From a virus (Duplodnaviria > Caudoviricetes), in the IMG/VR virus record IMGVR_UViG_2879636102_000002, positions 1-64,000 of that record: 64,000 nucleotides of DNA, one strand, 5' to 3'. Every line of letters begins with the position of its first letter. The stretch's first letter is position 1. Below the pieces are notes generated by a model. The model had not been told where the DNA came from. It searched no databases and worked only from the letters and a program-made list of their open reading frames with translations. The translations under genes were made by a program, and so were the position numbers. Shown piece by piece: positions 2,302 to 52,376 of this stretch.

Positions 2302-2990
2302 TAGTAGTGTTTTAAAACCTCGGAAAGGATTGTGTTCAATTTTCCCTTAATCACAAGAAACTTGGCCGAGTTATCTGGTGTTAAGCTCGATGTCCCGGGT
2401 GCTGTACACTGAACTGTGATTTTAGTGATTTCGTCACAGATTTCTTCTAGGATTGATTTCAAAGTTTCTCCTTGTGCAGCTTTTTCCAGAGAGTTTAGAA
2501 TTGGTGGAATTGTGTGATCGATTTGGACTCTGGTAGTATCTAATTTATCTTTAAAGAGAACTTTATTTTTATCCCATTTTGTTCGATGGCCAGATTCGTG
2601 GCCGACGGATGTTTCTTCAGAATCGAATTGAGTAGAATGTTTAAGTAGTGAACTTTTTCCTTTTGTCTCAGCTGCAAATGGATATACCTGGATGACTATC
2701 GGATTGTCTCTACGATTTTGGAGAAATCCAACAAGTACCATTTGGCCTTCTCGGTATCCAAATTTGAATCCCGAGAGAAAGCCCAATAGACCGATATAAG
2801 GTCCCGGGAGGCGGACTTTCTTTAGAATCTGGCCATTGAAAAGCCGAATGTCGGCCCGGTATTTCATAAGTCCACCGCTAAGAGAATCGATTTCACCTAG
2901 CTCCAATCCATTCATGATGCCTGGTTGTGCAAGACTAGGTGGTGCAAACGCAACTTTCGATTGTCTTCCAAATGATGGGAATTCTGGCAT
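2301..2990 (-). CDS. Baseplate spike / gpV-like protein
   Basis: N-terminal OB-like region (G.MVLVGF....DNPIVI) and GxxL...G.S..P.N C-terminus typical of spikes; ATG at 2990 lies directly behind the late promoter motif, so the ORF-track TTG start is probably an artefact. Confidence 0.55.
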   Translation of the reverse strand: MPEFPSFGRQSKVAFAPPSLAQPGIMNGLELGEIDSLSGGLMKYRADIRLFNGQILKKVRLPGPYIGLLGFLSGFKFGYREGQMVLVGFLQNRRDNPIVIQVYPFAAETKGKSSLLKHSTQFDSEETSVGHESGHRTKWDKNKVLFKDKLDTTRVQIDHTIPPILNSLEKAAQGETLKSILEEICDEITKITVQCTAPGTSSLTPDNSAKFLVIKGKLNTILSEVLKHY

Positions 2991-3027
2991 GGGAAGGGAC
3001 AAATTCGTGGATTTTGTAATTTGTCAA
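2991..3027 (-). promoter_or_regulatory. Putative late promoter copy 1 (leaderless)
   Basis: TTGACA-N18-TTTGTC-CCTTCCC-ATG. Confidence 0.75.
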
Positions 3028-3110
3028 CGGAAAAGAATCAATTAATAGAGCTTCTACGTTATCCAAATTGGTTGACTCATTGGTTCCTTGTATTCTAATT
3101 TTGCATACCG

Positions 3111-5888
3111 ATGGCATTATCACCTAACGAAATTAAATCTAGAGCAATTTCATTTATTCACGACCATAAAGATGACAAATACGAAAAGGGGGAGTCTCAA
3201 ATATTCTGGAGAGATTTCTTTAATATATGGGGTATTAGCGCTAAAAAAGTAGGGATCTTTGAAGAGAGAGCAAAAACTTTAAAGCAAACGACGGGATTTA
3301 TTGACTATTTTTGGCCCAAAACGATTCTGATAGAACAGAAGAGTCGTGGTGAAGATTTAGATAAAGCATATAAACAAGCATTAGACTACTGTTTAACCGG
3401 AGGTATCCCTGATGAAGAACTTCCAAGTTATATTTGTGTATGCGATTTTGAAAGACTTCGATTGGTAAATTTTACAGACCATAAAAAATCAATAGAATTT
3501 AAAATCACCGATCTTCTAGACCACCTTCAACGATTTAATTTTTTACTCGGATATGAACAACGGGAATACAAAGATGAAGATCCAGTAAATATCAAAGCTG
3601 CAGAGCTCATGAAGAAATTGCATGATGAGCTAAAGAGGAATGGATTCCAGGAACATCCTCTAAAACTTATGCTTGTTCGTCTGATGTTTTGTTTCTTTGC
3701 CGATGATACTGGAATATTCAATAAAGACGATTTTCTTTTCTTCCTGAAAGAACGTACCAAGCAGGATGGTAGCGACTTAGGGCTTTGGATTGCTCAATTC
3801 TTCCAAGTACTCAATACCCCTACGGAACAAAGGCTCGCAAACCTAGATGAAGACCTTGCAAAATTCCCTTATGTCAATGGGCAATTATTTGAAGAATCAA
3901 TTCCATTCGCACAATTTGATAGTGTGTTACGTGATATTTTAATTCAAACTTGCGAATTTAATTGGGCTCTTGTTAGCCCTGCTATTTTCGGAAGTTTATT
4001 CCAATCTGTAATGAATACCGCTGAAAGGAGAGAGCTTGGAGCACATTACACGAGTGAAAAGAATATATTAAAGACTATTCATGGACTTTTTCTGGATGAT
4101 CTGCTGGAAGAATTTGAAACTTTAAAATCAAAAAAGAGTATTAAAGGGCTCGATGAACTATTGGCTCGGATTAGAAAAATTAAAATACTCGATCCAGCCT
4201 GCGGTTGCGGTAACTTTTTAATTTTATCCTACCGCGAACTTCGACGTCTTGAAATCAATTTATTAAAGGAAATCAGAAAACTCAAAGGACTTGGACTTGA
4301 GTTATCAATTCAAACACTTGAAAGTCTCGATGTTGATTGTTTATACGGAATTGAAATCGAAGAATTTCCTGCTCAAATTGCAAAAACGGCAATATGGATT
4401 ATGGATCATTTGATGAATGTCGAAACAGGTAAAGAATTTGGAGAGTATTACGTTAGGCTCCCATTGAAGAAATCTCCAATGATTGTCTTTGGGAATGCTC
4501 TAAAATTGAAATGGGAAGAAATAATCAGCCCGAATGAAATTTCATACATTCTGGGGAATCCTCCATTTATTGGTCATCATTTACAAACAACAGCTCAGAA
4601 AGAAGAACTCAATGTAGTACTAAATGAAATTCAGGCTTCAGGTGTAATGGATTATGTTTGTGCGTGGTATATGTTGGCTGCTAGATACATTCAAAAAAAT
4701 CCAAACATCCTTGTTGCATTTGTTTCGACAAATTCAATAACTCAAGGCGAGCAAGTAGGAATCTTTTGGAAGCCTATGATTGAAAAATATGGAATCTCAA
4801 TTTTTTTCGCTCATAGAACCTTTAAATGGAGTAATGAGGCAAAAGGGAAAGCTGCAGTTTTTTGCGTAATAATTGGGTTTTCAAAAATAGAAAAAAGAAA
4901 CAAAAGAATCTTCTTTTATGAAAATGCTAATGCTGAACCAGTTGAGAAGAATGCATCTAATATAAACCCTTATCTAAACCAAGGGAAAAATATATATCTT
5001 GATAACAGAAGTCATCCTCTTTTTGATCATACTCCAAAAATGCTTTATGGTTCAAAACCAACTGATGATGGAAATTTTCTTTTAACAGAAGAAGAATTTA
5101 ATACTGCAATTCTAGATGATAATCGAATTAAAGAATTTGTGCGCCCCTTTGTAAGCGCGAAAGAATATCTAAACGGATTAAAAAGATATTGTATTTGGTT
5201 GGATGAAGTAGATCCATCTCTATACAAAGATATTCCATTCATTATGAAGCGAATTGAAAAGGTTCGGAAGTTCCGATTGGAGAGTAAAGCACTATCTACA
5301 AGATCTTATAAATATCATCATCTTTTTAGGCAAGTTACACAGCCGAAGTCTGACTATATTTTAGTTCCGAGACATTCTTCCGAAAATCGATTGTATGTTC
5401 CGTTTGGCTTTTTTTCAAAAAATGACATAGTTGCAGATAGTTGTTTTTCAATTCAAAATGCAAACCGTTATCATTTTGGGATTATAACTTCACTTATGCA
5501 TAATGCTTGGATGCGAGTCGTATGTGGTAGAATCAAGGGAGATTACCGATATTCAAAAGATATTGTTTACAATAACTTTCCTTGGCCAGAAAATCCTTCA
5601 GATAAACAAAAAGAAGAAATAGAAAAACTTGCTCAATCGGTTTTGGATGCCAGAGCGCAATTCCCTGAGTCCTCGTTAGCTGATCTCTATGACCCACTAA
5701 CAATGCCAAAAGTCTTGCGGGATGCTCACAATAAACTGGACAAAGCCGTGGACAAGGCTTACCGACAAAAGCCATTCCAGTCTGAGTCAGAAAGAGTAGA
5801 ATTCCTCTTTGAACTCTACGAAAAATATACAAATACACTCACATCACAAATAAAGATTCCAAAAAAGAAAGGAAAAATAGGGGAATAG
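3111..5888 (+). CDS. MmeI-family type IIL restriction-modification enzyme (endonuclease + N6-adenine MTase + target recognition domain)
   Basis: N-terminal E..Q.FW..FF, IDYFWP.ILIEQKS (PD-(D/E)xK), GAHYTS, DPACGCGNF (motif I), GNPPF (motif IV), YNNFPWP, LADLYDP. Confidence 0.9.
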   Translation: MALSPNEIKSRAISFIHDHKDDKYEKGESQIFWRDFFNIWGISAKKVGIFEERAKTLKQTTGFIDYFWPKTILIEQKSRGEDLDKAYKQALDYCLTGGIPDEELPSYICVCDFERLRLVNFTDHKKSIEFKITDLLDHLQRFNFLLGYEQREYKDEDPVNIKAAELMKKLHDELKRNGFQEHPLKLMLVRLMFCFFADDTGIFNKDDFLFFLKERTKQDGSDLGLWIAQFFQVLNTPTEQRLANLDEDLAKFPYVNGQLFEESIPFAQFDSVLRDILIQTCEFNWALVSPAIFGSLFQSVMNTAERRELGAHYTSEKNILKTIHGLFLDDLLEEFETLKSKKSIKGLDELLARIRKIKILDPACGCGNFLILSYRELRRLEINLLKEIRKLKGLGLELSIQTLESLDVDCLYGIEIEEFPAQIAKTAIWIMDHLMNVETGKEFGEYYVRLPLKKSPMIVFGNALKLKWEEIISPNEISYILGNPPFIGHHLQTTAQKEELNVVLNEIQASGVMDYVCAWYMLAARYIQKNPNILVAFVSTNSITQGEQVGIFWKPMIEKYGISIFFAHRTFKWSNEAKGKAAVFCVIIGFSKIEKRNKRIFFYENANAEPVEKNASNINPYLNQGKNIYLDNRSHPLFDHTPKMLYGSKPTDDGNFLLTEEEFNTAILDDNRIKEFVRPFVSAKEYLNGLKRYCIWLDEVDPSLYKDIPFIMKRIEKVRKFRLESKALSTRSYKYHHLFRQVTQPKSDYILVPRHSSENRLYVPFGFFSKNDIVADSCFSIQNANRYHFGIITSLMHNAWMRVVCGRIKGDYRYSKDIVYNNFPWPENPSDKQKEEIEKLAQSVLDARAQFPESSLADLYDPLTMPKVLRDAHNKLDKAVDKAYRQKPFQSESERVEFLFELYEKYTNTLTSQIKIPKKKGKIGE

Positions 5889-5990
5889 CCAAATTTCGTA
5901 TTCTAAAAATAATAAAGATCAAATAAAATCAATCAAACTTGATTTGATCAAAACGCCAATTTAGATTATGGAAAGGAACATTTAATTCAA

Positions 5991-6920
5991 ATGGATTATC
6001 ACTTAGAAAATTTATCGGAGGATGACTTCGAAAAGCTAGTCAATGTTATATGTCAGAAAATTCTTGGAACTGGGATTGTGAGTTTTTCAAAAGGACGTGA
6101 CGGTGGTAGGGACGGGAGGTTTTTCGGAACTGCTAATTCCTTTCCATCTAATTTATCTCCATGGAAAGGGAAATTCATTATACAATCGAAACATACAAGT
6201 GATTATCAAGCAAGTTGTTCAGATAATACATTTTTTGAAAACAAAACTAGTGTTGTAAAATTGGAAATCGAAAAAATTAAAAATTTAAAGATAAAGAATG
6301 AAATCGATAATTATCTGCTTTTTACGAATAGAAAAGAAACCGAGACGCGAGAAAATGCAGTAAAATACATAAAATCAGAAACCGGTTTAGAAAACGTCGA
6401 TATTATTGGAAAAGATACTATACAAAGTTGGTTATCCCAAAATATAATTATCGTAAAACAATTTCGATTAGATAAATTTGCTACTCCTTTCGATTTCTAC
6501 GAAAATGATATCAAAGATTTAATTCAAATATTTCATGAAAATACTCCAAAATTTACGAATATCAGTTTAGTAGTGGATAGGCCTGCAATTGAAGAGAAAA
6601 ATAAAATAAATAATTTAGATTCATCGTATTTTGAGAATATATTGATTGAAGACTTAAATAAGTATCATCAGAAAATATTAGAGTTTTTAACTGATCCGAA
6701 AAATGAAGTTTTTGCAGGATTTTATGAGGAAACAAGCATTGAACTCAAAAGGGTAATTGAAATCAATATTGATAAGTTCGAAAATTTCAAGCATGTATTC
6801 GATTTTCTTACAAGATATATTCTGGACAAAGAACCAGAAAGATTAAAAAAATACAGGAATATAATTCCAGCATTTTTTCATTTCATGTATTATCAATGTG
6901 ATATTGGGAGAGAAAAATGA
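5991..6920 (+). CDS. lmuA: Lamassu/ABC-three-component effector: Mrr/REase-like nuclease + C-terminal domain
   Basis: 'L..DDFEKLV...GRDGGRDGRF...IIQSKH' REase fold; C-terminal 'FMYYQCDIG'; first gene of an overlapping triad. Confidence 0.75.
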   Translation: MDYHLENLSEDDFEKLVNVICQKILGTGIVSFSKGRDGGRDGRFFGTANSFPSNLSPWKGKFIIQSKHTSDYQASCSDNTFFENKTSVVKLEIEKIKNLKIKNEIDNYLLFTNRKETETRENAVKYIKSETGLENVDIIGKDTIQSWLSQNIIIVKQFRLDKFATPFDFYENDIKDLIQIFHENTPKFTNISLVVDRPAIEEKNKINNLDSSYFENILIEDLNKYHQKILEFLTDPKNEVFAGFYEETSIELKRVIEINIDKFENFKHVFDFLTRYILDKEPERLKKYRNIIPAFFHFMYYQCDIGREK

Positions 6921-7174
6921 TAAAACCTCATAAATATTTAAATTTAGATTTGTCGATATTAAATATTTCTGCTTTTATCCTTCAGGATTTAAAAAAAAAT
7001 TCTATTTTGTCTTACAATGATGTTATAAATTCCAGCATAAATAAATTTGGAGAAAATGTAAAAGACACAATCCCATTCGCACTTAGCTTTTTATTTATGC
7101 TCGATAAAATCGAATACCTTGGCAATGAATTGGATGCCTTCCAATTAAAGGGATATTTAATTGAAACTCAGTAA
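6917..7174 (+). CDS. lmuC: Lamassu/ABC-3C middle component
   Basis: 85 aa, 'IKPHKYL....S.....A.IL...ALSFLFMLDKIEY'; overlaps both neighbours. Confidence 0.7.
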   Translation: MIKPHKYLNLDLSILNISAFILQDLKKNSILSYNDVINSSINKFGENVKDTIPFALSFLFMLDKIEYLGNELDAFQLKGYLIETQ

Positions 7175-9014
7175 ATTGTACTCAAATAAACTTTTCCACA
7201 ATATAAAATTCAATACAAACAGAGACAAAATAAATATTATTATTGGGGACTCGAAAAAAAAAGAAACGGAAAAGGATCAGCACAATTTAGGGAAATCTAA
7301 AATTTTAATTTTAATCGATTTTTTATTATTAAAGAAAAAACATTCTGATTTATTTTTATTCACAACAAAATTAAAATCTGATCCGGAGTCGCCAAATTCA
7401 GGAAGCATTATAAAAAATTCTGAAATTATTGCGACCTCAGATAAAGGATCTTTACTATTCCAAGGATACGAATTTTATTTAGAGATTTTATTGAATAGTG
7501 GGAAATATCTCGTAATAAAAAGAACCATTGAGAATCCTACGAAAATTTCATTTAAACATTTAGAAAAATCTGATGAAGGTTTTATTTGTTATTCTGATTG
7601 GGACGAAGAAAATATTCCAATTGATAAAGCAAAGTCTAGGTTAAATGAACTACTAAATTTCGATTTTAGCCGAAATTACCAACTAGACTATCGTAAACTT
7701 GTAAATTATTCTTTGAGGATGCAAGGAGATTATGATTATCAGAGGAATAGCATTTTTCAATTAAGTAAATTCAAAGGTAAGGATAAGTTTTGGAAACCCT
7801 TAATGTTTGCTTTGTTAGGATTTAATAAAGAAATTCCACTTAAAAAATATAACCTGGAAAATAAAATTAATGATGATAAAAATACTATCAAAGAGCAAAA
7901 AATTACATTCGACATTAATCCGACAGAAATTGATAGTTTGGTTGGCCAAAAGCAGGTCAAAGAACTCGAGTACTCTGATTTACAGAACGAGATTGACAGC
8001 TATAATTTTTATAATCAAGATCGCGAGATTATAGACAATTTGGTAGGTAGTTTAGAAAATAATATTTCAGCACTAAATTCTCAGCTATATAATTTAGAAT
8101 ACGATATAAACAAACTAAATCAATCCATAAAAAATGGATTTTCTTTTGATACAGAGAAAATAAAAACACTATTTGAAGAATTCAATGTTTATTTTCCAAA
8201 TCAACTTTTAAAATCTTATGAACAGCTGGTAGATTTTAACAAAAGGATAACCAAGGAGAGAAACGAGCAAATAAGAGATTCTTTGATAAAAAAACAACTG
8301 GAAGTTACAAACATTACGACGGAATTAATTTCTCTAAATGCACAAAGAGAAAAATACAGAGATATTTTAAATGATTCAGCAATTATTAAGAAATACAAAG
8401 AATATCAAAGAAAAATGGTGAAACTAGAAACCGAAATTTTACTGATAAATACAAAACTTAATAGTATTCAAAAAATTGAAGCCAAAGAAAATGAAATTAA
8501 GACCACCATAGTAAAAGAATTAGATGGCGTTATCGAAGAACTAAAAAGCACAATCGCGAGTACGGGAAATAATGAAAAGTATGCTAAAATAAGAAGATTA
8601 TTTTCGGATATTACTAGAAAGATTACTCATTCGCAAGCTTATATTTCAATGGCATTAAATCAAAGTTCAAACATTGAATTTGAGTGTAAATACGAAAATA
8701 GTGCTAAAGATGAAGGAACTACATATTATAAATTACTCTGTATTGCTTTCGATATTGCAATTCAATCCGTTTATTCGAGCGAATCATATTTTCGGTTTAT
8801 ATTTCATGATGATGCATTTGCAAATTTAGCAAACACTCGCAGAATTGATCTTTTAAAAACTGTAAGGGAATACACAAAGAAATACAATATTCAATATATT
8901 TTCTCTATCATAAAAGATGATATACCAAGTAATTTTTCATATGAAGATGATGAGGTGATTTTGGAGCTCCACGATAGAGATGATTCGGGGAAGTTATTTT
9001 ATATGAGCTTTTAA
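7161..9014 (+). CDS. lmuB: SMC-like ABC ATPase (DUF2326-type), Lamassu sensor
   Basis: HNLGKS Walker A-like motif, long coiled coil, 'FIFHDDAF' Walker B/D-loop, terminal 'GKLF..F'. Confidence 0.8.
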   Translation: MKLSKLYSNKLFHNIKFNTNRDKINIIIGDSKKKETEKDQHNLGKSKILILIDFLLLKKKHSDLFLFTTKLKSDPESPNSGSIIKNSEIIATSDKGSLLFQGYEFYLEILLNSGKYLVIKRTIENPTKISFKHLEKSDEGFICYSDWDEENIPIDKAKSRLNELLNFDFSRNYQLDYRKLVNYSLRMQGDYDYQRNSIFQLSKFKGKDKFWKPLMFALLGFNKEIPLKKYNLENKINDDKNTIKEQKITFDINPTEIDSLVGQKQVKELEYSDLQNEIDSYNFYNQDREIIDNLVGSLENNISALNSQLYNLEYDINKLNQSIKNGFSFDTEKIKTLFEEFNVYFPNQLLKSYEQLVDFNKRITKERNEQIRDSLIKKQLEVTNITTELISLNAQREKYRDILNDSAIIKKYKEYQRKMVKLETEILLINTKLNSIQKIEAKENEIKTTIVKELDGVIEELKSTIASTGNNEKYAKIRRLFSDITRKITHSQAYISMALNQSSNIEFECKYENSAKDEGTTYYKLLCIAFDIAIQSVYSSESYFRFIFHDDAFANLANTRRIDLLKTVREYTKKYNIQYIFSIIKDDIPSNFSYEDDEVILELHDRDDSGKLFYMSF

Positions 9015-15814: not shown

Positions 15815-16066
15815 TTACTTTTTCACTCCCCAAAATTCCTGAAATGCTTTCTCGTAATCATCTTTGGCCTTCAAACCGTTAAACTTTCCATGGTTCTTTA
15901 CCAAAAACTCCCGGAATACTTGCGCCATAGAATAACGGGCAAGTTCAGGTTTGGACTCAATGAATTTTGCAGTTGGATCCTTTACCAATTCTTTGTTAGG
16001 TGAAGCATCCACGACTTTTGTAGCTTTTTGCTTTGTTTCGACGTTAGAATCTTGAGTCCCTTGCAT
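15815..16066 (-). CDS. Hypothetical late protein (leaderless first gene of the tail operon)
   Basis: ATG directly follows late promoter copy 2; stop abuts the sheath ATG. Confidence 0.65.
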   Translation of the reverse strand: MQGTQDSNVETKQKATKVVDASPNKELVKDPTAKFIESKPELARYSMAQVFREFLVKNHGKFNGLKAKDDYEKAFQEFWGVKK

Positions 16067-16103
16067 GGGAAGTGACAAGGGAACTAGACTCCAAAATTAT
16101 CAA
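16067..16103 (-). promoter_or_regulatory. Putative late promoter copy 2
   Basis: TTGATA-N18-CTTGTC-ACTTCCC-ATG. Confidence 0.8.
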
Positions 16104-17635: not shown

Positions 17636-17636
17636 T

Positions 17637-20210
17637 TTAACATACCTGATTTTTATTTTTCAGAGCTTTGAGGAAAGTTCCAATCGAGCTTTTGAAAGCG
17701 AACATATCCGGAGTTTGGGAATCTGCTTTTATTTCGCTGAATTTCTTTTTCAATGAATCTCTAAAAGCAGCGATATTATTGAGTGCATCAGATAGCCTTG
17801 CAAGTTCTGTTTCCAGTGCACTCTCACCTTTCGTTGCTATAATAGAAGCTGCTAGTTCTTTCGCTTTTCCTTCATTGAGATCCGTAATTGTATCACCAAG
17901 GAATTTCTGAATTGGTTTTTGAATTGCTGTTAGTAAGTTTTCGAAGCCTGCTGAATTTGCCCTCGCATTGTCCTCGCCACCTGCATATTTCACAGCCTCC
18001 TGTTCTACTTCAGATCTACCGGTAGAGTCCACGTTCCCGAAGGAAAAATTCTGTGCTTTGAGACTATCAATATACGACTTAACTTGGTTAGGTGAAATTC
18101 CTTTGCCTTTGTTTTGATTGTACCATGAGAACGCCTTTCTTTGGATAGTAGGTGAGGGATTCCCTCCTTCATCGATCCCGTTTTTTGCGATAACGATTGC
18201 CAATGACTCAGGAATCGATTCCCTTTTCTCTTTGGATCCATCGTTTGCTTTATCTGATGTACGGATGTTCTTTTTCGCATCGGTTCGGAGAAGGTCTTGA
18301 AGTTCTGGAATTAAATTGTTGAGTGCAATGGTTCCCTTGACATATTCCGTAGACTCTCCTGTTCTTTCTGAAATTTCCTGTACGGACTTACCTTGCTCGA
18401 TAAGTTTCGCGTAGGCTTTTGCATCATCCAACCGTTCCACTTCACGCTTGTTTTTGTTCGCTGAGACCTGCGCGAGTAAACGATCAGATTCAGAATTGTA
18501 TTTTTCCTCAATTACATAGATTGGGGTATCTTTTGGAAGTTTTGCTTCCGAAATAAGTTCTTTTACGGCTGTGAAACGATGATGTCCATCGACTACTGTC
18601 AGTTTACCGTTTTTATCTCTATCAACTTTAATTGGAGAACCAGGATCGAAACCTTTGGCAAGAATTGAAGATTTGATTCCTTCTATAACTTTTCGATTAT
18701 AATTTTTCTCGTCAGTGTATTGCTCAATTGTAGAGATATCTGAAGCAGGAACTTCTTTTAATTTATTTGAAGTCTTCCCGGACACAGATTGTCGATAGAC
18801 ATGTTTGTCTCCAGAAATGCGAAGTGCTTGCGATCTTATCTTAGGGCTTTTTTTTTTAATTTCAGAAATTGCTTTTATTGCACCATCTTTCTTAGCATTA
18901 TCATTCCCTTTCATTGCTTTGGAACGTGCATCAGGATCGAGTGCTTGTTTTTCTTTGACGTAATTCGAAATTGCTTTCTTGTCTACGTTCCCTTTAGCAT
19001 CAACTGGAAATGTGTCAGGTGCATCTACCTTGTATAATGCTTCAAATGCGACTTTCTCTAGATCGCTAAGTGTTTTGAAACCATCACGCACCTGTTTTTC
19101 TTTCATTGCTGATCTTAATTCAGAACGGGCTTTTTCAATTTCCGTCCTAAACTCATCCTCACTGAGGCTTTTATCCTTCCGAATGGTATCAATTTTATTC
19201 CAGGATTGAGCGATTTTAGCTTCAATCGGGTCCTGCTCGTTGACTAATTTGGATAGTTCCTTAGTATCAGTTTGGGATTTAGGTAAGCTGGAATTCTTTT
19301 TCAAACTATCCAGCAATTTACCCAATTCATCTTTTTTGGATTTTGGGATTTCGCTCCAATTGGAAATACCTTGCTCTCCGAGACTTTCAATAGAGTGCTT
19401 TGCCTGTGACAAAACTTGTTTTGGATCTTTTTCGGAATAAAATTTTTCAGCTCCTGATCCTTGAGACCAAATCCATTTATCTTCCGTAGGTTTATAAAAA
19501 AAACTCACTTCCTTCCCACTTTGTGAAAGGTATTTGTATTTTGTTGCGTTTTTTACTTCTGAAGTTTGCTCTTTGGTGAATCCAAGTTTCTCCAAATTAT
19601 TTACAATTTCTTGAGAGGATCCCTCCCCATGTTTCTCATTTGAATCAGTATACTTACTTGCTATGAATTGCATGAGCTTCAGATTCCATTTTTTCCCATC
19701 CTGAAATTTATCTGCCTGCTCTTTGACCTTTTCCTTTGGAGTTTTTTCCTGTTTCTCTTTGGTGACGACATCGATGTCGTCACCAATCTCTTCTTTTGGT
19801 TCAGCAGTTTCTTTTGTAGGCTCGGTTTTTTTTGCCTTAAATTTTGTATCCCATTTGGTTTTGTTTGCTAAATATTCTGCTAGGTGAGAGGAGAAATCCT
19901 GTTTTGAGACGGGTCCAACTTCCTTAGTTATTGCATCCAAGTTCTCTTTGTATTCCGATTCAATCTTTGCATTGATTTCCGTCGGCTTGACTCCGAAAAA
20001 ACTTGCAACCTTGCTCCAAATAGAAGGCTCTTTCTGGCCTTCCTTTTTCGGTACTTGTTTTTTGTGATCTCGATCATACGCTTCTTTTGTGTACCAATAA
20101 CGATAACCACCTTTCGCCTTTGGTTCTCGCTTGTAGTATTTTACATTCGTTCCTTGTGAGCCTTTGCTCCCTTTAAGGAAATTTAATATGATTGCAAGAT
20201 TTTGATTCAT
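17637..20210 (-). CDS. Large Lys-rich putative internal virion protein with a ParB/Srx domain
   Basis: 'VIEGIKSSILAKGFDPGSPIKV...VVDGHHRFTA...SANKNK....LDDAKAY..L' ParB + HTH; leaderless ATG after late promoter copy 3. Confidence 0.65.
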   Translation of the reverse strand: MNQNLAIILNFLKGSKGSQGTNVKYYKREPKAKGGYRYWYTKEAYDRDHKKQVPKKEGQKEPSIWSKVASFFGVKPTEINAKIESEYKENLDAITKEVGPVSKQDFSSHLAEYLANKTKWDTKFKAKKTEPTKETAEPKEEIGDDIDVVTKEKQEKTPKEKVKEQADKFQDGKKWNLKLMQFIASKYTDSNEKHGEGSSQEIVNNLEKLGFTKEQTSEVKNATKYKYLSQSGKEVSFFYKPTEDKWIWSQGSGAEKFYSEKDPKQVLSQAKHSIESLGEQGISNWSEIPKSKKDELGKLLDSLKKNSSLPKSQTDTKELSKLVNEQDPIEAKIAQSWNKIDTIRKDKSLSEDEFRTEIEKARSELRSAMKEKQVRDGFKTLSDLEKVAFEALYKVDAPDTFPVDAKGNVDKKAISNYVKEKQALDPDARSKAMKGNDNAKKDGAIKAISEIKKKSPKIRSQALRISGDKHVYRQSVSGKTSNKLKEVPASDISTIEQYTDEKNYNRKVIEGIKSSILAKGFDPGSPIKVDRDKNGKLTVVDGHHRFTAVKELISEAKLPKDTPIYVIEEKYNSESDRLLAQVSANKNKREVERLDDAKAYAKLIEQGKSVQEISERTGESTEYVKGTIALNNLIPELQDLLRTDAKKNIRTSDKANDGSKEKRESIPESLAIVIAKNGIDEGGNPSPTIQRKAFSWYNQNKGKGISPNQVKSYIDSLKAQNFSFGNVDSTGRSEVEQEAVKYAGGEDNARANSAGFENLLTAIQKPIQKFLGDTITDLNEGKAKELAASIIATKGESALETELARLSDALNNIAAFRDSLKKKFSEIKADSQTPDMFAFKSSIGTFLKALKNKNQVC

Positions 20211-20247
20211 GGGGAAGGACAAAGGAATGGATCCCAATGAAAGTCAA
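20211..20247 (-). promoter_or_regulatory. Putative late promoter copy 3
   Basis: TTGACT-N18-TTTGTC-CTTCCCC-ATG. Confidence 0.75.
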
Positions 20248-29234: not shown

Positions 29235-29285
29235 ATTTTTTACCTTTAATGAAACCTAAGATGATATTTGAGCAGAGTTTGACAT

Positions 29286-29322
29286 GGGAAGTGACAAGGG
29301 CATCCCCCAGGCGAGAATTCAA
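29286..29322 (-). promoter_or_regulatory. Putative late promoter copy 5
   Basis: TTGAAT-N18-CTTGTC-ACTTCCC-ATG; this ATG opens a 9-codon mini-ORF. Confidence 0.8.
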
Positions 29323-32536: not shown

Positions 32537-34207
32537 CTATGCATTCGGTAGAAAGTCCTCTTCACCCCAAGGCAATTCTCCTTGGTTACCGGTTGCAACA
32601 GGAGATTGCTCTTCCTCACCACCGCCTTGAGCCTGTTCCTCGTCTGCAAAGACTTTTCCAAACTCCTGACTGAAATATTGATTTCCACGTAAGAGGCCGA
32701 GACGGGCCATTTTCTTTCCCTGCTCTACAGTTATGATTCCGCGAGCTACATAATCTTCCGCTTCCTCTTTCATGGTAGGTAAATCATTTGCTTTCCGTAT
32801 TTCATCTAATGACCGACTAACTTTGAATTGTTTGTCTTCGAGATCTGCTTTTTTGTCCTCTTGCTCTGTTTTCACTCCGATGAAATTCAATGCGATTGGG
32901 CTTTCGTCTCTCGGATCGAAAACTTCATTGAGACAATCTTGATGAAAACTCATGATAGATCCATGAGCTCGGTCTCTTGAAAAATGCTGTCTTCCATCCA
33001 TAGAAGGCTCTGCGAGTGATTGCGATTGATTGAGTCTAAGTCCGAGCTGCGCAGGATCAATTCCGTGTCTTGCAATAATAAATGAAGAAACCATTTGGAG
33101 CATTTTATCGAATTCGAAATCATCCGACACATCCAAGTTATGTACCTGGATTTCTCCAGCACCAAACATCATTGGGATTTTGAATCCTTCTCTCGGTCCA
33201 TAAAAAGCGTTTTCCCAAATGAGCTCGATGCGCTCTTGGTCTCCTTTCGGAATTGCGTTTTTTGAAGAAATAATGGCCTTTGGTGGATTCCTAGAATTGA
33301 ATCTGTCTGCGTTATGTTTTATGGTAAAAAGTAGGGACATGATCTCAACCAAACAAGATTCGATAGGCGAATATCCAAACCCACGCATTCGAATATCGGA
33401 AAGGTTATTCTTATGACGGTAAACAATTCGTCCTGCTTCATAAGTCTCTGTTACAGTGTTGTGCACCATCTGAACGTGAGTGATATTTTTATCGCCTTTG
33501 TATCCTTTTCTTGGATCTACACGGAAAATAGTCGCGGGATCCAGATAACGAACGTCACAGATCTCTCCTGCTCGATTAAAGGTTCTCAAATATGCCACGG
33601 CATCTATTGCAAGAGTGTCCCTAGTCGCCATTTCAAGGACTTCCCCAAGTCGTTCACGTTCTCGCCAATCTGCCTGAGATTTATCTCCCATTAGGAAAAC
33701 ACGATTTGCGAAACTGGCCATCTCTTGCCTTTGCAAATCTGTTGCGGATATGTCCTTTTGCTTTAGTTTGAATTCAAAGCCTGGATCTTCTCCAATTTTG
33801 GCATACATTGAAACATCATCGGCCATGATTTGGTGAATTGCTCCGATGAGAGAAGAAGCATAGGAAATGTTTCTGAGGTCCTCTAATGGGATACGATAGA
33901 TAGGCCTAACACGAATCCCTTGCTGGACAGGGACCACCATATCATCTGAATAAATTGGATTCTTCTTGTCCTTTGCAGTTTCCAGCAAATTAAACATTCG
34001 ATTATTTAATTCAACTGCTTGCTTTACTGTTGATTTTGCAGGTGAGTAAAAAGAGGATTTTCTAAATTCCTCCACAGTCATAGTCCTTGGATCGGAAGAG
34101 GGATCTTCGACTGCTTTAGCCTTACCTTGAACAACCTTCTCTCTTAACTCTGGTGGAGTTCGATAGAATAGATTCTTCTCATAATTTTTCCCACGTGGTC
34201 TCGGCAT
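32537..34207 (-). CDS. Portal protein
   Basis: 'LDPATI', 'RGFGYSPIE', 'D.EF.K......I....GIDPAQLG', 'DEIR'; leaderless ATG. Confidence 0.9.
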   Translation of the reverse strand: MPRPRGKNYEKNLFYRTPPELREKVVQGKAKAVEDPSSDPRTMTVEEFRKSSFYSPAKSTVKQAVELNNRMFNLLETAKDKKNPIYSDDMVVPVQQGIRVRPIYRIPLEDLRNISYASSLIGAIHQIMADDVSMYAKIGEDPGFEFKLKQKDISATDLQRQEMASFANRVFLMGDKSQADWRERERLGEVLEMATRDTLAIDAVAYLRTFNRAGEICDVRYLDPATIFRVDPRKGYKGDKNITHVQMVHNTVTETYEAGRIVYRHKNNLSDIRMRGFGYSPIESCLVEIMSLLFTIKHNADRFNSRNPPKAIISSKNAIPKGDQERIELIWENAFYGPREGFKIPMMFGAGEIQVHNLDVSDDFEFDKMLQMVSSFIIARHGIDPAQLGLRLNQSQSLAEPSMDGRQHFSRDRAHGSIMSFHQDCLNEVFDPRDESPIALNFIGVKTEQEDKKADLEDKQFKVSRSLDEIRKANDLPTMKEEAEDYVARGIITVEQGKKMARLGLLRGNQYFSQEFGKVFADEEQAQGGGEEEQSPVATGNQGELPWGEEDFLPNA

Positions 34208-34244
34208 GGGAAGTGACAAGAAATATAGTTCTCAATCATTGCAA
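34208..34244 (-). promoter_or_regulatory. Putative late promoter copy 6
   Basis: TTGCAA-N18-CTTGTC-ACTTCCC-ATG. Confidence 0.8.
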
Positions 34245-40160: not shown

Positions 40161-40165
40161 AATGA

Positions 40166-47421: not shown

Positions 47422-49113
47422 TTAATAACCTCGCCTTCTTAATTGTTCTCTTCGAAGCTGCTCAATAGACTTTCCAATTGTAACTTGCGATTCTTGATGC
47501 AACCCTGCTTCCCGTTCCCTTGCCTTCGCTAACTGTTCTGGTGTGACTATACTTATCATATTCCCCATTTGTTCTACAATCAATCGATGAGCCATCTCCA
47601 ATGCGTCAGGACCATCCAGTTTCTTGTAAGGGAATTCGTTTAGCATTTCAAAAAGTAAATTGGAATCGGATCTGAGTAACATGAGGCCAGTTGCAATTAT
47701 AGTTTGCAATGCCCCTTCGATTCGTTTGATCTTATCTCCAGTGTTTGGGATCCCAACCATTGGAACAATGATTCGATCTGTGGGTGATAATCCTTGCCCG
47801 TTGTTTGGGTTTACACACAGTTCATTCCAGTCTTCTAAATGCCGTTTAAACGCGTCCAGGAAGTATTCCTGCCCTCCACTGGTCTCAACACCCGCAACTG
47901 TCCATGGAAACGCTCTGAGAGCCTTTACGAGGTCAATTTGGATCTGATCTGGAGGTCTTCTAGCAATGTCTGAATAGAGTTCGTAGAATTTTCCCTGTGG
48001 AGAAAGTCCAACACCGACAATTGCGGAATAATCTGATCTCTGAGTCTTCCCAAGCGAAAGATCCACTGCCAATCCAAGAGTCCATCCTTGAAATGATTCC
48101 GGCCTAACAAATTCGTAAGTTTGAATTCTACCTTTGAATTTCTGATCGATCTCTGCGAGTATGACGTTCTGCCTTTCTCTTGCGAAAGAGATTGGATCGA
48201 CTTCTCTTTCCTTTAGAAGCATCGAGAGAGGTGCCCCGGCTTCCCAAGTAGAATACTCGGATCCATCTGGACGAGTTCCAATGGCAGAGAATTTCTTACG
48301 ATTCCAATCCCAATACTTTTTGGTATCGTTGTAGATAACTTCTCCTACGCAATTTGGTGAAAGAGTTGTGTAAGACAAAACTACATCGATACCCCATTGA
48401 GCTCCGAGCTTCAATGCCGCCCGATCGAACCAACGATATTTTTTTTGCATTCTGGAATCTGATTCAACGTCCTTCTCTTCATCCGGATCATCGACAATCA
48501 AAGCGTCTGGCCGATATTGTCTATACCGAGTTCCACGAATGGCATTAAGAAAGCCTTTCGCAATGATCCTGGCACCTCCCCTGAAAACGATATCCAAATC
48601 ATTCCAAGCAACATTCTGGCCTTTCTGATCTTTTGCAGGCCTTAGTTCAGGAAAGTCAGATACAAGCAGTTCGTTATCTTCACACTCATCCACAATCTTT
48701 TGGAGAAAACCTTTCGCCTGTGTGAGTGAGGCACTGACCATGATCACAAAATGCCAATCACGCCTAAGCACCAACCACATGACACCGCATAAAGAGAGAA
48801 TGGTTGATTTTCCAAAACCTCGGGAGAGAGCTCGGATTATTTTCATTGGCCCCCTACCCTTCTTTCCGGCAAAGGCTTGTATGTCCTCTATCAATTCCAA
48901 TTGCTGTTCCCCAAACTCAGTAGAGAAGTAGTGAGCAAAATAAGTATTGAGAAAGACTCGAAAACTTTCTATGGCCTTTACTCTTCGTAAGGTGGCGGGA
49001 TTCCCTTCTCCGTATTGTGCTTTTTGTTTTTCTAAAAATCGCTTGAGATAAATTTCAGCGACTTTGGCAGGATACCTTTTTAATTCCTTACGCAATTCCT
49101 CGATTTGGATCAT
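47422..49113 (-). CDS. terL: Terminase large subunit
   Basis: RGFGKST Walker A, 'IRG.R....RPDALIVDDP', 'AVDLS', 'DYSAI', 'DGPDAL'. Confidence 0.92.
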   Translation of the reverse strand: MIQIEELRKELKRYPAKVAEIYLKRFLEKQKAQYGEGNPATLRRVKAIESFRVFLNTYFAHYFSTEFGEQQLELIEDIQAFAGKKGRGPMKIIRALSRGFGKSTILSLCGVMWLVLRRDWHFVIMVSASLTQAKGFLQKIVDECEDNELLVSDFPELRPAKDQKGQNVAWNDLDIVFRGGARIIAKGFLNAIRGTRYRQYRPDALIVDDPDEEKDVESDSRMQKKYRWFDRAALKLGAQWGIDVVLSYTTLSPNCVGEVIYNDTKKYWDWNRKKFSAIGTRPDGSEYSTWEAGAPLSMLLKEREVDPISFARERQNVILAEIDQKFKGRIQTYEFVRPESFQGWTLGLAVDLSLGKTQRSDYSAIVGVGLSPQGKFYELYSDIARRPPDQIQIDLVKALRAFPWTVAGVETSGGQEYFLDAFKRHLEDWNELCVNPNNGQGLSPTDRIIVPMVGIPNTGDKIKRIEGALQTIIATGLMLLRSDSNLLFEMLNEFPYKKLDGPDALEMAHRLIVEQMGNMISIVTPEQLAKAREREAGLHQESQVTIGKSIEQLRREQLRRRGY

Positions 49114-49751
49114 ATCGCAAGGTCATTCCCAAACTTTTCCGCGAGCGCAGTTGAAAGTGCCTGAACTGCTTGTTCTATCTTTTTGTCTTCTTCCTCTTTG
49201 TCATCAGACTTAGGAAGTCGTCCCGTTTTTTCTAAATAAGCGAAGGCTAATTTTCCGGCCTGGATCTTATCCTCAAAGTCATAGTCACCTGATGCTATCT
49301 CTTCTAAGATTCGAAAAAATCCGACGGCCACTGGAACGGAATTTTGGCGAATATGCGATAAGAGTTCCAGTTCAATTTCATCGGCATATTTTCGGAATGG
49401 TTCACAATGCTTATAATTCCATCCGAACCAATCTCGAGCTCTCCCAATCATAGGACCAATGTGCGTTTTATATTTTCCAGCACGGAAAAGTATTAATCCA
49501 GATTCTTGAAATGGGGAGACTTCTGGAAATTCTCTGTAAAGAACCACGGCTTTGTTTTTTGGAATTGGTTCAAATTCTTTTCCTCCCCTACTCTCTAAAA
49601 AGATCTCCTCTGGTTCTCGACTCGGTATTGTATTTTCGGTCGAGTTATTTGAGATTGTTGAGTCAGGATTTTCCCATGATTTAGAACTACCTTTCTTCAC
49701 CACACGTTTGCTAGGTGCTTTTTTCCGAGGGATTTTCTTCTTTGGTGCCAT
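49110..49751 (-). CDS. terS: Probable terminase small subunit
   Basis: Overlaps the terL start (ATGA); size and position. Confidence 0.65.
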   Translation of the reverse strand: MAPKKKIPRKKAPSKRVVKKGSSKSWENPDSTISNNSTENTIPSREPEEIFLESRGGKEFEPIPKNKAVVLYREFPEVSPFQESGLILFRAGKYKTHIGPMIGRARDWFGWNYKHCEPFRKYADEIELELLSHIRQNSVPVAVGFFRILEEIASGDYDFEDKIQAGKLAFAYLEKTGRLPKSDDKEEEDKKIEQAVQALSTALAEKFGNDLAI

Positions 49752-49752
49752 C

Positions 49753-49789
49753 GGGAAGTGACAAGTTGCAGTAAAATACTACCTGTCAA
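49753..49789 (-). promoter_or_regulatory. Putative late promoter copy 7
   Basis: TTGACA-N18-CTTGTC-ACTTCCC-G-ATG. Confidence 0.8.
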
Positions 49790-51106: not shown

Positions 51107-51497
51107 GTGAATCTTCTTTCTCTGATTGTGTAGTTTTAATTTTTAGAGCATTCACTAGAAAATCGATTTTCTCTTTCAAACCACTTATCGTATAAGCTTG
51201 AAAAGCTAAAACTAAAGCAGATAAAATGGCCGCGATAGGAGATGCATATTTGCTAAATTGCTCGCCTCCGGAAAGGCCAACTTTCGCATTCTCTCTTCTG
51301 TTGTATCTTTTCCTTTCCTGTGCTACTTCTTTTTCCGGAACTATTTCCAATGCACTTAATTGAAAAGTGTAAGAATTTATCTCTCCACCATCGATTGTCC
51401 ACGTAACTTCGCAGTTATACTCTCTTAGTTGAGTGACTGTCATTAGCTGGTTACCTCCTTTCAGTTTTACCGTGGATCCAACTTTGAAATCACTCAT
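51090..51497 (-). CDS. DUF2158/YodC-like domain + TM helix
   Basis: 'FKVGSTVKLKGG.Q.MTV......C.W......F...LE'. Confidence 0.6.
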   Translation of the reverse strand: MSDFKVGSTVKLKGGNQLMTVTQLREYNCEVTWTIDGGEINSYTFQLSALEIVPEKEVAQERKRYNRRENAKVGLSGGEQFSKYASPIAAILSALVLAFQAYTISGLKEKIDFLVNALKIKTTQSEKEDSPKTPE

Positions 51498-52342
51498 TCT
51501 TTAAGTGCCTCTTTTCCTTCGATAAACTTCTTTAGGTCCTTCAGTTTCTTGATATCTGGATCCTTTTGAATTGCGTATTTCAAGTAGTGTTCAAACCCAC
51601 CTACTTTACCAAAATCCTTTTTGAATTCAGTTTGTTTCTTGGATATTTTATTCAATCGCTCTTTGTAGGAATCAATTTCTTTACGTAGGTCCTCTTTGAC
51701 TTTGTTCTTTTGCTTTTCTGCTTCCCACCAATCAAGGATTCTGTTATTGAAATATCTTACCTCTCCATCCTTCAGTTCTGGTAACTCCTTGGGAGGTTTC
51801 TTCATATCTTTCTTTAGTTCGTCTCGGAGTTCCTTTAGGTCCCGATTTACTGTTCCAAGAGGCCAGCCAAACATATCCATGATCTTACGTCGAATGGGAG
51901 TTTTGAATTCTTTTCGGGAGGAGAACTTATTCCCATAGGACCCTCCCCTATCGTCTTGGAGAACTTCATCTTTTCCAAACCAAATAAGGATTACGCGTTT
52001 TCTGTTTTCTGGAGTATAGTCCTTCGCAAAACCGTTCTGAGCTACCATAACACGAGCTCGAACGATATCAGTTAATTCAGATAAAACATGTTTCGCTGGG
52101 ATAGTTTTGAAGCCTGCTTTTTTGGAAGCACGGTATCTTCTGGCGCCATTTAGAATTTCGTATTGGCCGTTTGCATTTTTTTCTTTGGTTAGGACTATTG
52201 GATCTTGTACGCCTTGAGTGGCAACATCCGCATCAAACTCTTTTTGTGATTCGCGATCTACATCTCGGAAGAAGTTATCTTTGTGGATGACTAAATCATC
52301 GAGTTTGACTAGTTTTATTTCGGAATATAAAATCTTTTCCAT
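51494..52342 (-). CDS. ParB/Srx N-terminal domain protein
   Basis: 'VATQGVQDPIVL...YEILNGARRYRA...GF..IP'. Confidence 0.75.
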   Translation of the reverse strand: MEKILYSEIKLVKLDDLVIHKDNFFRDVDRESQKEFDADVATQGVQDPIVLTKEKNANGQYEILNGARRYRASKKAGFKTIPAKHVLSELTDIVRARVMVAQNGFAKDYTPENRKRVILIWFGKDEVLQDDRGGSYGNKFSSRKEFKTPIRRKIMDMFGWPLGTVNRDLKELRDELKKDMKKPPKELPELKDGEVRYFNNRILDWWEAEKQKNKVKEDLRKEIDSYKERLNKISKKQTEFKKDFGKVGGFEHYLKYAIQKDPDIKKLKDLKKFIEGKEALKE

Positions 52343-52376
52343 TGAAGACAAGTATGACCTGCGATTGAAGAATCAA
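52343..52376 (-). promoter_or_regulatory. Putative late promoter copy 8 (divergent downstream part)
   Basis: TTGATT-N18-CTTGTC-TTCA-ATG. Confidence 0.55.

Follow-up and report, generated by a model that had tools for sequence, protein, structure and literature searches.

What directs transcription of the late genes in the LE1 lineage of Leptospira phages? The 64,000-nt stretch analysed here (the window) is part of a circular LE1-like replicon (C11, 79,565 bp), a Leptospira plasmid-prophage, on which a bipartite element, TTGnnn-N18-YTTGTC, stands at the heads of late operons. The original prediction described eight minus-strand copies and read them as a non-canonical late promoter class giving mostly leaderless mRNAs. 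All eight are real and lie on the minus strand at the positions given below, with an 18-nt spacer in 8/8, and the replicon total is ten: two divergent copies beyond the window, at C11 78083 (-) and 78104 (+), head baseplate and lysis operons. The element is thus not restricted to the minus strand, since the copy at 78104 is on the plus strand. Among the late genes downstream of the motif, PHROGs identifies those for terminase, portal, major head, sheath and tail fibre, and the LE1 annotation adds baseplate J and endolysin.

Five copies in the window head operons or genes directly. The copy at 2988..3027 (-) has its -35 TTGACA at 3027-3022 and, after N18, TTTGTC at 3003-2998, CCTTCCC and an ATG at 2990-2988; it heads a gene of 229 aa (homologue of LE1 gp40, phrog_33385) followed by one of 125 aa, and its LE1 orthologue lies at 43502, with gp40 starting at that same ATG in RefSeq. 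At 16064..16103 (-), TTGATA, N18, CTTGTC (16079-16074) and ACTTCCC precede the ATG (16066-16064) of an 83-aa gene that leads into the tail sheath operon (phrog_279); orthologues are found in LE1 (32716, with the gp29 start) and in replicons of two relatives, G061 and G048. The copy at 20208..20247 (-) consists of TTGACT, N18, TTTGTC (20223-20218), CTTCCCC and ATG (20210-20208), and heads the gene for a virion-module protein of 857 aa that contains a ParB HTH segment (LE1 orthologue at 28571, with the gp26 start). The portal operon (portal, phrog_12) is headed by a copy at 34205..34244 (-) with TTGCAA, N18, CTTGTC (34220-34215), ACTTCCC and ATG (34207-34205); this promoter candidate has orthologues in the metagenome contig L019, the viral contig G114, G061 and G048, and the portal N-terminus that follows, MxRPRG..YEKNL, is invariant in three divergent portals. 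At 49749..49789 (-), TTGACA, N18, CTTGTC (49765-49760), ACTTCCC and a single G precede the ATG (49751-49749) of a 213-aa gene, terS by position only, which is followed by the large terminase gene (terL, phrog_38) and, after the terminase operon, by a terminator with a 20-bp stem (47175-47132). Orthologues of this copy in G114, G061 and G048 carry TTCGTC or TTTGTC and a GTG or ATG start.

The remaining three copies in the window depart from this arrangement. At 29256..29322 (-), TTGAAT, N18, CTTGTC (29298-29293) and ACTTCCC are followed by an ATG (29285-29283) that is at the purine, as predicted, but opens a frame of only 9 codons; the frame is a remnant of the start of LE1 gp15, a giant gene that occupies this place in LE1 and begins there with the same ATG. 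The tail fibre gene (phrog_772) after this copy begins at ATG 29234 and has its own AAAGGT ribosome-binding site. The copy at 27158..27230 (-) has TTGCAA, N18, CTTGTC (27206-27201) and ACTCCCT, with a predicted +1 A at 27193, and heads an operon reaching the major head protein gene (phrog_752). It had been singled out as the one copy with a leader, and it does have one, of 33 nt, with GAGGT at 27168-27164 and ATG at 27160-27158; the same leadered arrangement occurs in LE1, G114, G061, G048 and G049. Divergent from it lies a small conserved gene (27284..27643, +, GTG 27284; 119 aa, phrog_21632), which in G114 and G061 has a TTGTCA-N18-TTTGTC copy of its own, 8-9 nt before the ATG. The third, at 52340..52376 (-), is atypical: TTGATT, N18 and CTTGTC (52352-52347) are followed by TTCA and ATG (52342-52340), so that the pyrimidine tract is missing and the ATG is only 4 nt after the hexamer. 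It heads a 282-aa gene with a ParB_N domain and a second gene of 135 aa, and the short distance of 4-5 nt recurs before the orthologous ParB_N gene in LE1, G061 and G048. The ParB_N gene and, in relatives, the small opposite-strand gene are thus also under the motif, and the class is not restricted to morphogenesis genes.

Over the ten copies, the upstream box has an invariant TTG with A preferred at position 4, a feature of sigma70-type -35 elements. The downstream box is YTTGTC in 10/10 copies, with neither A at position 2 nor T at position 6, and is as unlike TATAAT as had been claimed; no TAnnnT, the feature of a housekeeping -10, is found 16-18 nt after the -35. Substitutions between the window and LE1 at the ten sites number 0/100 in the 10 nt upstream of the -35, 1/30 in the last three -35 bases, 4/70 in the 7-nt tract, 26/140 in spacer positions 1-14 and 61/300 further upstream. 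The pyrimidine-rich 7-mer followed by a purine is present in 7/8 window copies, as predicted, but conservation of the ACTTCCC tract stops at the close LE1 group, so the element is not defined by it. No conservation is seen 9-11 nt upstream of the hexamer G, which does not fit the GG (-24) and GC (-12), 10 nt apart, of sigma54 promoters; G-rich spacer columns 13-15 nt upstream of that G are seen in only 4-5 of ten copies. The ECF promoter feature is likewise incomplete, with GTC present, AAC absent from the -35 and no ECF gene on the replicon. Taken as sequence, this anatomy (A-tract, sigma70-like -35, spacer of fixed length and non-TATAAT hexamer) supports a bipartite promoter.

The motif is specific to the phage replicon. 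The pattern TTG-N21-YTTGTC has 13 matches in the window vs a mean of 1.94 in dinucleotide-preserving shuffles (n = 100; largest 6; 0/100 reach 13). Five of these matches, at 5768 and 52860 (-) and at 17117, 32487 and 32828 (+), have neither tract nor start codon and were treated as background. The core TTGTCNYTYCC alone has 9 matches on the replicon, and TTG is at the exact offset in 8/9 (chance of TTG at a fixed offset, 0.018; for ≥8/9, P ~1e-13); the -35 is thus not a product of the search pattern. The original prediction would have failed had the motif been as frequent in host DNA or before early genes. The replicon has 2.0 matches per 10 kb vs 0.09-0.85 on host contigs >30 kb, and the strict motif has 8 matches on the 79.6-kb replicon vs 2 in the remaining 4.1 Mb of the host genome. 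Among 114 Leptospiraceae genomes scanned, there is an excess only in the genome that carries C11 (10 strict matches, 8 of them on C11) and in G005 (7, all on a sister replicon), over a background of 0-5; a host-type match inspected in another genome (G012) lies inside a 721-aa coding frame. YTTGTC is found 13 nt before the first ATG in 0/1854 long host ORFs, and 26 of 292 relaxed host matches are near an ORF start, with one only resembling the phage arrangement. An exact-pattern scan of species-representative genomes gave one chance match only, in a Nitrospira MAG.

The motif is also absent from the early and immunity regions of the replicon. Between cI and cro lie promoters of canonical form with Shine-Dalgarno leaders: TTGCTT-N17-TATTAT in the window and TTGCAA-N17-TATGGT in both G114 and G048. 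LE4, an unrelated L. biflexa phage, has no such element before its genes. A simple sigma70 scan found sites no more numerous than in shuffles, and a crude scan upstream of the first ATG of the 1854 long host ORFs found no TAnnnT peak, too coarse a result to characterise the promoters of host leaderless genes.

A scan of LE1, the phage comparison suggested with the original prediction, recovers all ten copies. The window, LE1 and G005 form a close group with mutual identity of 88-97%, so conservation inside that group alone says little. Four more distant LE1-like elements (35-66% protein identity) share the architecture at orthologous operon heads: an A-tract, TTGnnn, N18-19, nTnGTC and a start codon 4-10 nt later, with spacer sequence that drifts freely. 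L019 (portal 57% identical) has TTGCAA-N18-TTTGTC-N8-ATG, and the element is present in G114 and in the replicons G061:C27 and G048:C3, which are syntenic at 35-66% protein identity. The 31 instances compiled over four lineages all have nT[T/C]GTC (TTTGTC 17, CTTGTC 10, ATTGTC 3, TTCGTC 1), a spacer of 18 nt in 28 and 19 nt in 3, and TTGCAA (10), TTGACT (6) and TTGATT (4) as the commonest -35 forms; a sixth lineage, G049, has the leadered copy. The motif does not occur in G013:C15, an LE1-like element of greater distance (34% portal identity), or in two high-GC viral contigs (L021, L022). These three have GGAAA(A/T)(A/T)C repeat arrays upstream of the portal gene instead. A plasmid collection searched with window positions 27000-47000 gave no match. 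A search of sequencing runs for related sequence found no RNA run, only contigs from four wastewater metagenome runs that belong to a single study; over 15500-35000 these contigs are short fragments of related phages without transcript ends.

The start codons suggest where the transcripts would begin. The purine after the tract is the A of an ATG in the five copies for which this was predicted (3027, 16103, 20247, 29322 and 34244, named by their upstream ends), and in a sixth (49789) the ATG is 1 nt later, again as predicted. On the whole replicon the hexamer-to-start distance is 7-9 nt in 8/10 copies (that at 29322 opening a remnant frame) and 4 nt in one, and one copy is leadered. A Shine-Dalgarno-like word precedes 0/8 promoter-proximal LE1 genes vs 24/35 other late genes (Fisher p = 5e-4), and for 8 LE1 genes the start given in RefSeq is the motif ATG; the motif also corrects gene starts in the LE1 reference annotation. 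The starts without Shine-Dalgarno sites and the conserved N-termini directly after the motif agree with leaderless translation, but the distance ranges over 4-10 nt across relatives, and ‘leaderless or with a leader of 0-3 nt’ is therefore a safer wording than strictly leaderless. If the transcription start site is fixed, such a variable distance leaves at least some transcripts starting away from the start codon; a site 7 nt after the hexamer would even lie within the coding frame of the ParB_N gene, whose distance is 4-5 nt. GTG starts are poor for leaderless translation in E. coli, and several relatives use GTG at motif-headed genes. The available text of a genome-wide start-site study describes about 440 Leptospira mRNAs with leaders of ≤10 nt, and 184 that begin at the start codon, and the host genus as routinely translating leaderless mRNAs (PMC5243855). 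We read the element as a lineage-specific late promoter class with predicted start sites, probably giving leaderless or near-leaderless mRNAs.

No sigma gene had been seen in the window, and none was found on the whole replicon either. Six-frame searches over the genome with Pfam Sigma70_r2 (PF04542) and r4_2 (PF08281) gave no match on C11, and local HMM and hhalign comparisons with host small sigma factors returned from the replicon only the HTH of the cI-like repressor, a weak region-4 match; a very divergent sigma on the replicon could still lie beyond these profiles. Pfam and PHROGs searches on about 55 of 100 ORFs revealed no regulator and no gp55-, gp33-, MotA- or AsiA-like protein. In the host genome there are at least 9 matches to Sigma70_r2 (8 passing the Pfam cut-off) and 12 to Sigma70_r4_2 (11 passing). 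A gp03-like HTH protein (52924-53478) was considered as a sigma and rejected, being a replication initiator by PHROGs and Pfam HTH_36.

The non-structural proteins common to the four motif-bearing lineages are ParA, the cI-like repressor, an 80-aa protein in the cro position, a Dam-type methylase, the ParB_N protein and the 119-aa phrog_21632 protein, none of which looks like a sigma. The 119-aa protein has only 3 homologues in a large protein collection and no Atlas match, and its AlphaFold model (pLDDT 79.4) has no PDB fold match (best Foldseek E-value 1.7). The model of the 80-aa protein (pLDDT 54.5) is too poor for a fold search. These two small proteins are candidates for a factor that recognises the element.

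We consider it probable (about 60%) that the elements are late promoters of LE1-type (Saintgironsvirus-like) phages, silent without a lineage-specific factor, that give leaderless or near-leaderless mRNAs; promoter function, late timing, start site and the existence of the factor are all part of what we infer. Each promoter would combine a sigma70-like -35 (TTGaca or TTGcaa) and, across an 18-nt (rarely 19-nt) spacer, the hexamer nTnGTC in place of a TAnnnT -10, with the A/T-tract just upstream of the -35 possibly acting like an UP element for the RNA polymerase alpha subunit. Because the hexamer lacks two bases needed by every housekeeping -10, host sigma70 holoenzyme alone would be unable to open it. 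The promoters would be silent in the lysogen and fire only once the lineage-specific factor, possibly a phage-encoded sigma-like or sigma-remodelling protein that current searches do not recognise, binds the TTGTC element. Transcription would then begin about 7 nt after the hexamer, which in most copies coincides with the A of the ATG or misses it by 1-3 nt. Genes that open a late operon (portal, terS-like, baseplate and others) would accordingly be translated with no mRNA leader or almost none, and those behind them from Shine-Dalgarno sites. More tentatively, LE1-type phages may redirect host RNA polymerase to an nTnGTC -10 while keeping the sigma70-type -35 and UP-like contact, and do so without a recognisable sigma gene. 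If so, the factor would be of a new type: a sigma-like protein that current profiles do not reach, or a small protein that gives host sigma70 a new -10 specificity.

The same promoters could instead be read by a host alternative sigma, for example of ECF type with a GTC-core -10, switched on by prophage-inducing stress and needing no phage factor. Many ECF -10 elements have GTC at their core, and GTC is what never varies in the hexamer; searches of the replicon gave no phage sigma, the host carries many sigma-region matches, and a conserved host factor could explain why phages from three host genera have retained the motif. We nevertheless regard a host sigma as unlikely: the motif shows no excess in the host genome, where its frequency is near the shuffled expectation, the single host match resembling the phage arrangement stands alone among 292, LE4 infects L. 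biflexa without the element, and the -35 resembles TTGACA, with no AAC such as ECF promoters have. ECF sigmas also usually autoregulate, and the motif is found within 400 nt upstream of 0/13 host sigma genes.

Host sigma70 might also suffice by itself, reading the promoters through the UP-like tract and the near-consensus -35, with TTGTC mainly an operator for a phage repressor. The strong -35 elements, the A-tracts free of substitutions (0/100) and the presence of cI-like and other HTH proteins fit this account, as does the imperfect inverted repeat GACAA...TTGTC formed by the -35 TTGACA and the hexamer in copies 3027 and 49789. That repeat is missing from most copies (TTGCAA, TTGAAT, TTGATT), however, and an operator has no need to stay, from lineage to lineage, exactly 18 nt from the -35 and a set short way before the start codon. 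In 10/10 copies the hexamer lacks the position-2 A and the position-6 T of a -10, with no TAnnnT at a usable distance, whereas the early promoters of the same replicon do carry TAnnnT, and we give this account even less credence than a host sigma. Least probable of all is that the element is no promoter, being rather an RNA or translation signal (non-Shine-Dalgarno, ending ACUUCCC-AUG, within longer transcripts) or another DNA site. The conserved block does adjoin the start codon, the start sites are predicted only, and only 14-40 nt separate some copies from the stop of the gene before them, so that read-through transcripts probably cross them. Against this, distant relatives keep the TTG, spacer length and GTC but not the pyrimidine tract, a translation signal leaves the TTG 27 nt upstream and the A-tract unexplained, and one operon, in five lineages, has the element 40 nt before the start codon together with an ordinary GAGGT.

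Promoter rules in Leptospira are poorly defined, and the available text of the genome-wide start-site study reports no shared sigma70 motif (PMC5243855). The LE1 lineage offers about ten sharply defined, mutually similar candidate promoters per genome, beside canonical early promoters on the same replicon. Our full-text literature search, whose scope did not extend to the LE1 genome paper (Bourhy 2005) or to supplements, found no description of LE1 late promoters, and the words ‘promoter’ and ‘sigma’ have 0 occurrences in the LE3/LE4 paper. If the class is late-specific and factor-dependent, it would provide a clean setting in which to look for a new transcription factor that takes over -10 recognition, a natural set of leaderless mRNAs for studies of spirochaete translation, and compact, tightly switched promoters for Leptospira genetics, where shuttle vectors are already built on the LE1 replication origin.

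Several known systems resemble the LE1-type class in part. In T4, late promoters (gp55/gp33) consist of TATAAATA with no -35, and middle promoters (MotA/AsiA sigma appropriation) keep the -10 and have the -35 replaced. The LE1-type class would be T4-like in that a phage re-specifies one promoter box on the host core enzyme, but it keeps the -35 and replaces the -10; a re-specified -10 recognition by host sigma70 would mirror MotA/AsiA, which re-specify the -35. The Bacillus phage SPO1 has recognisable sigma genes (gp28, gp33/34) whose promoters differ from the host consensus in both boxes. The LE1-type elements are like these in being a bipartite, phage-specific class of a putatively later temporal stage; unlike in SPO1, the difference from the host consensus is confined to the -10, and there is no recognisable sigma gene. 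ECF promoters have AAC at -35 and GTC or CGTC at -10, which recalls the invariant GTC of the LE1-type downstream box and the variant TTCGTC of relatives, containing CGTC, but in the LE1-type elements GTC lies about 4 nt further from the -35 than in known ECF examples.

A further parallel is found in the late promoters of the Thermus phages Lalka27a and YS40, which, in the available text, have their own -10 consensus, use host RNA polymerase and are many and scattered through the structural genes, with transcripts beginning at the A or G of the start codon and a phage factor, as yet unidentified, inferred by the authors (bioRxiv 10.64898/2026.04.20.719267). The LE1-type class likewise combines a class-specific -10, many copies in structural genes, predicted leaderless transcripts and an inferred factor. 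The Thermus late -10, TAGGGT, still fits TAnnnT, whereas in LE1-type nTnGTC both the A and the final T are missing, and a consensus -35 with an 18-nt spacer is retained. Within the host genus, the elements resemble the leaderless mRNAs of Leptospira interrogans in having a start codon at or near the predicted 5' end and no Shine-Dalgarno site; for those host genes the available text reports no shared promoter motif (PMC5243855), whereas the LE1-type set shares a sharply defined one.

The window forms the first 64 kb of C11, a contig of 79,565 bp in a source genome of 4.19 Mb (37% G+C), and parts of it share 88% DNA identity with Leptospira phage LE1, a plasmid-prophage of L. biflexa (NC_048892). 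An ORF that begins at 78143 crosses the contig end and closes at 422, yielding 614 aa, the same size as LE1 gp43; thus, C11 is a complete circular LE1-like replicon. PHROGs matches assign the large terminase, portal, major head protein, tail sheath and tail fibre to the window's minus-strand genes, with baseplate and endolysin genes added from the LE1 annotation. The strongest terminator-like site in the window, a perfect 20-bp stem followed by a T-run (47132-47175, -), lies directly downstream of the large terminase gene, where it marks the terminase operon's end. Between the terminase and portal operons, 13 kb of inserted DNA carries a 2239-aa gene (40166-46885, -) that has no TTGTC-type promoter.

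Defence cargo occupies a plus-strand block between two late operons (3111-9014), with a complete MmeI-type restriction-modification protein (925 aa, five MmeI domains) and an adjoining three-gene ABC-3C system (CTD12 effector, MC8 middle component, DUF2326 ATPase). Dam-type and other methylases are also encoded on C11, and GGATCC and its extensions (GGATCCC, TGGATCC) are over-represented there, from ~5-fold (7-mers) to 12-fold (CGGGATCC) above the base-composition prediction.

Thirteen matches to TTG-N21-YTTGTC were found in the window, compared with a shuffled mean of 1.94 (13 was reached in 0 of 100 shuffles). The eight minus-strand copies of the original prediction (-35-side coordinates 3027, 16103, 20247, 27230, 29322, 34244, 49789 and 52376) were recovered at their exact positions, all with an 18-nt spacer; in seven a pyrimidine-rich 7-mer precedes a purine, with an ATG at that purine in five and 1 nt further on in a sixth. 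The five remaining matches have neither this tract nor a start codon and are treated as background. The replicon total is ten, with a back-to-back pair beyond the window at 78083 (-) and 78104 (+) that heads two operons (baseplate J through the lysis genes, and gp43/gp42 baseplate). Two of the eight also need qualification. Copy 52376 has the 18-nt spacer but is atypical, with no tract and an ATG 4 nt after the hexamer (YTTGTC), while the ATG of copy 29322, which is the gp15 start in LE1, opens only nine codons. C11 is rearranged here relative to LE1: the giant LE1 gene that follows this promoter (gp15, 5.9 kb) is missing, leaving a 9-codon stub (29256-29285, -), and C11 has instead the 2239-aa gene between its terminase and portal operons; the LE1 arrangement at this junction was seen in one wastewater contig. 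When the downstream core TTGTCNYTYCC was searched alone, it occurred at nine places on the replicon, eight of which have TTG at the exact upstream offset (chance of at least 8 of 9, ~1e-13), so the two boxes are linked whichever way they are found. Information content over the ten copies also reveals a tract of A/T lying 4-10 nt ahead of the -35, and CC is favoured immediately before the hexamer.

Scanning of LE1-like phages located an LE1 copy at 10 of 10 orthologous places, as well as copies in distant relatives. Between the window and LE1, substitutions over the ten sites number 0/100 in the 10 nt preceding the -35, 61/300 further upstream, 1/30 in the last three -35 bases, 26/140 in spacer positions 1-14 and 4/70 in the ACTTCCC-like tract; TTG and the hexamer were left out of this evidence since the search was conditioned on them. 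The distant relatives are more telling. A metagenome contig with a 57% identical portal has TTGCAA-N18-TTTGTC-N8-ATG ahead of the portal gene. Three further elements show synteny, at 35-66% protein identity: G114, a viral contig of 51.6 kb, and the complete replicons G061:C27 (72.8 kb) and G048:C3 (83 kb), both from other genera. Their motifs precede the same set of operons: portal, terS-like, tail fibre or giant gene, sheath, gp40, baseplate J, gp43 and the ParB_N gene, with the capsid-assembly operon in the same leadered form as at window copy 27230. Among 31 compiled instances, the hexamer is TTTGTC in 17, CTTGTC in 10, ATTGTC in 3 and TTCGTC in 1, and spacers measure 18 nt in 28 instances and 19 nt in the other 3; relatives also contain TTAGTC and AATGTC, and a sixth lineage (G049) has a leadered copy with TTCGTC. 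The comparison identifies TTG, spacer length, T at hexamer position 2 and GTC as the invariant parts. Only the close LE1 group has the ACTTCCC tract.

Ahead of the portal promoter, window positions 34245-34290 contain AAAAACCCC / TTAAAACCCC repeats. In more distant LE1-like elements, which have no motif, arrays of 3-5 GGAAA(A/T)(A/T)C repeats occupy the same place (L011, 2960-3075; L021 and L022, upstream of the portal gene), followed in G013 by TAGAAT. Such repeats may be the site of another activator or have a role in packaging.

The motif is specific to the phage rather than to its host. Its density is 2.0 per 10 kb on C11 versus 0.09-0.85 on host contigs >30 kb, and a stricter pattern gives 8 matches on C11 versus 2 in the remaining 4.1 Mb. 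None of 1854 long host ORFs has YTTGTC 13 nt ahead of its first ATG, and among 292 relaxed host matches 26 are near an ORF start, with one resembling the phage arrangement; a recurrent host-type match examined in G012 falls within a 721-aa coding frame. Across 114 Leptospiraceae genomes, the background of 0-5 matches is exceeded only in the source genome and in G005, which harbors a sister replicon (portal 97% identical). The motif was not found before any gene of LE4, an unrelated lytic L. biflexa phage. LE4 (MF974397, L060) has a five-copy element of its own, GTTTACAAAAAATAAACC, upstream of genes at 7140, 33338, 33795, 35921 and 46771, with GGGAGA- or AGGAGA-type ribosome-binding sites ~20-25 nt later in Shine-Dalgarno leaders; this is probably LE4's own promoter class.

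The motif ATG coincides with the RefSeq start of eight LE1 genes. Shine-Dalgarno-like words (loose list: GGAG, GAGG, AGGA, AAGG, GGTG, AGGT) occur in the 15 nt ahead of the start in 0 of 8 promoter-proximal LE1 genes versus 24 of 35 other late genes (Fisher p = 5e-4), and three portal homologues, with identity down to 33%, share an invariant N-terminus (M, RPRG, YEKNL). Across lineages the start codon, GTG in some, lies 4-10 nt after the hexamer; transcription from the predicted site ~7 nt after the hexamer would leave leaders of 0-3 nt. With its start codon always 4-5 nt from the hexamer, the ParB_N gene would require transcription to begin unusually near the hexamer, unless it is read in another way. 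In L. interrogans, mRNAs with no leader or a very short one are frequent (PMC5243855). Two annotated starts in LE1 look mis-set: that of gp44 (gene at 47958-49205) is 90 nt upstream of the post-promoter ATG (48048), within the divergent promoter region, and gp18 (21028-21219) overlaps with the capsid-assembly operon's promoter and leader.

The cI/cro intergenic regions have canonical boxes (TTGCTT-N17-TATTAT in the window; TTGCAA-N17-TATGGT in G114 and G048) and leaders with GAGGA-type ribosome-binding sites. The replicon therefore holds two promoter types, an arrangement that fits host sigma70 reading an early class, with the late class being distinct from it.

Sigma regions 2 and 4 were not detected anywhere on the replicon, and the motif is upstream of none of 13 host sigma genes. 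We therefore favour a lineage-encoded factor, so far unrecognisable, as the reader of the late class. The main rival is a host alternative sigma; the GTC core is reminiscent of ECF -10 elements. Pfam and PHROGs searches, covering ~55 of 100 ORFs, recovered as regulator-like or DNA-binding proteins a cI-like repressor with weak HTH proteins adjoining, a replication initiator, ParA and ParB_N. The non-structural proteins that all four lineages with the motif have in common are ParA, the cI-like repressor, a Dam-type methylase, ParB_N, an 80-aa cro-position protein (phrog_7494) and a 119-aa protein (phrog_21632). The phrog_21632 gene (27284-27643, +) lies within the late region on the other strand and is unannotated in the LE1 RefSeq record; its product is 41-51% identical in distant relatives, and a predicted model had no PDB match. 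It is preceded by TTGAAT-N16-TATTAT in the window and by its own TTGTC-type promoter in G114 and G061. Separately, window 55113-56346 (+) encodes a protein of 314 aa, which matches HATPase_c weakly, and then a 98-aa STAS-like DUF4325 protein, both also in G048:C3 (40% and 35% identity); the pair resembles, in domain types only, an anti-sigma / anti-anti-sigma pair.

A full-text literature search, whose reach excluded the LE1 genome paper, returned no description of the LE1-type late class. The nearest described case examined (bioRxiv 10.64898/2026.04.20.719267) is the late promoter class of Thermus phages Lalka27a and YS40, in which the -10 is specific to the class, transcripts are leaderless and the authors infer a phage factor that they have yet to identify. 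Unlike the Thermus class, LE1-type promoters drop TAnnnT entirely and keep a consensus -35, at 18 nt; they are of interest mainly because the factor still missing may belong to a new type.
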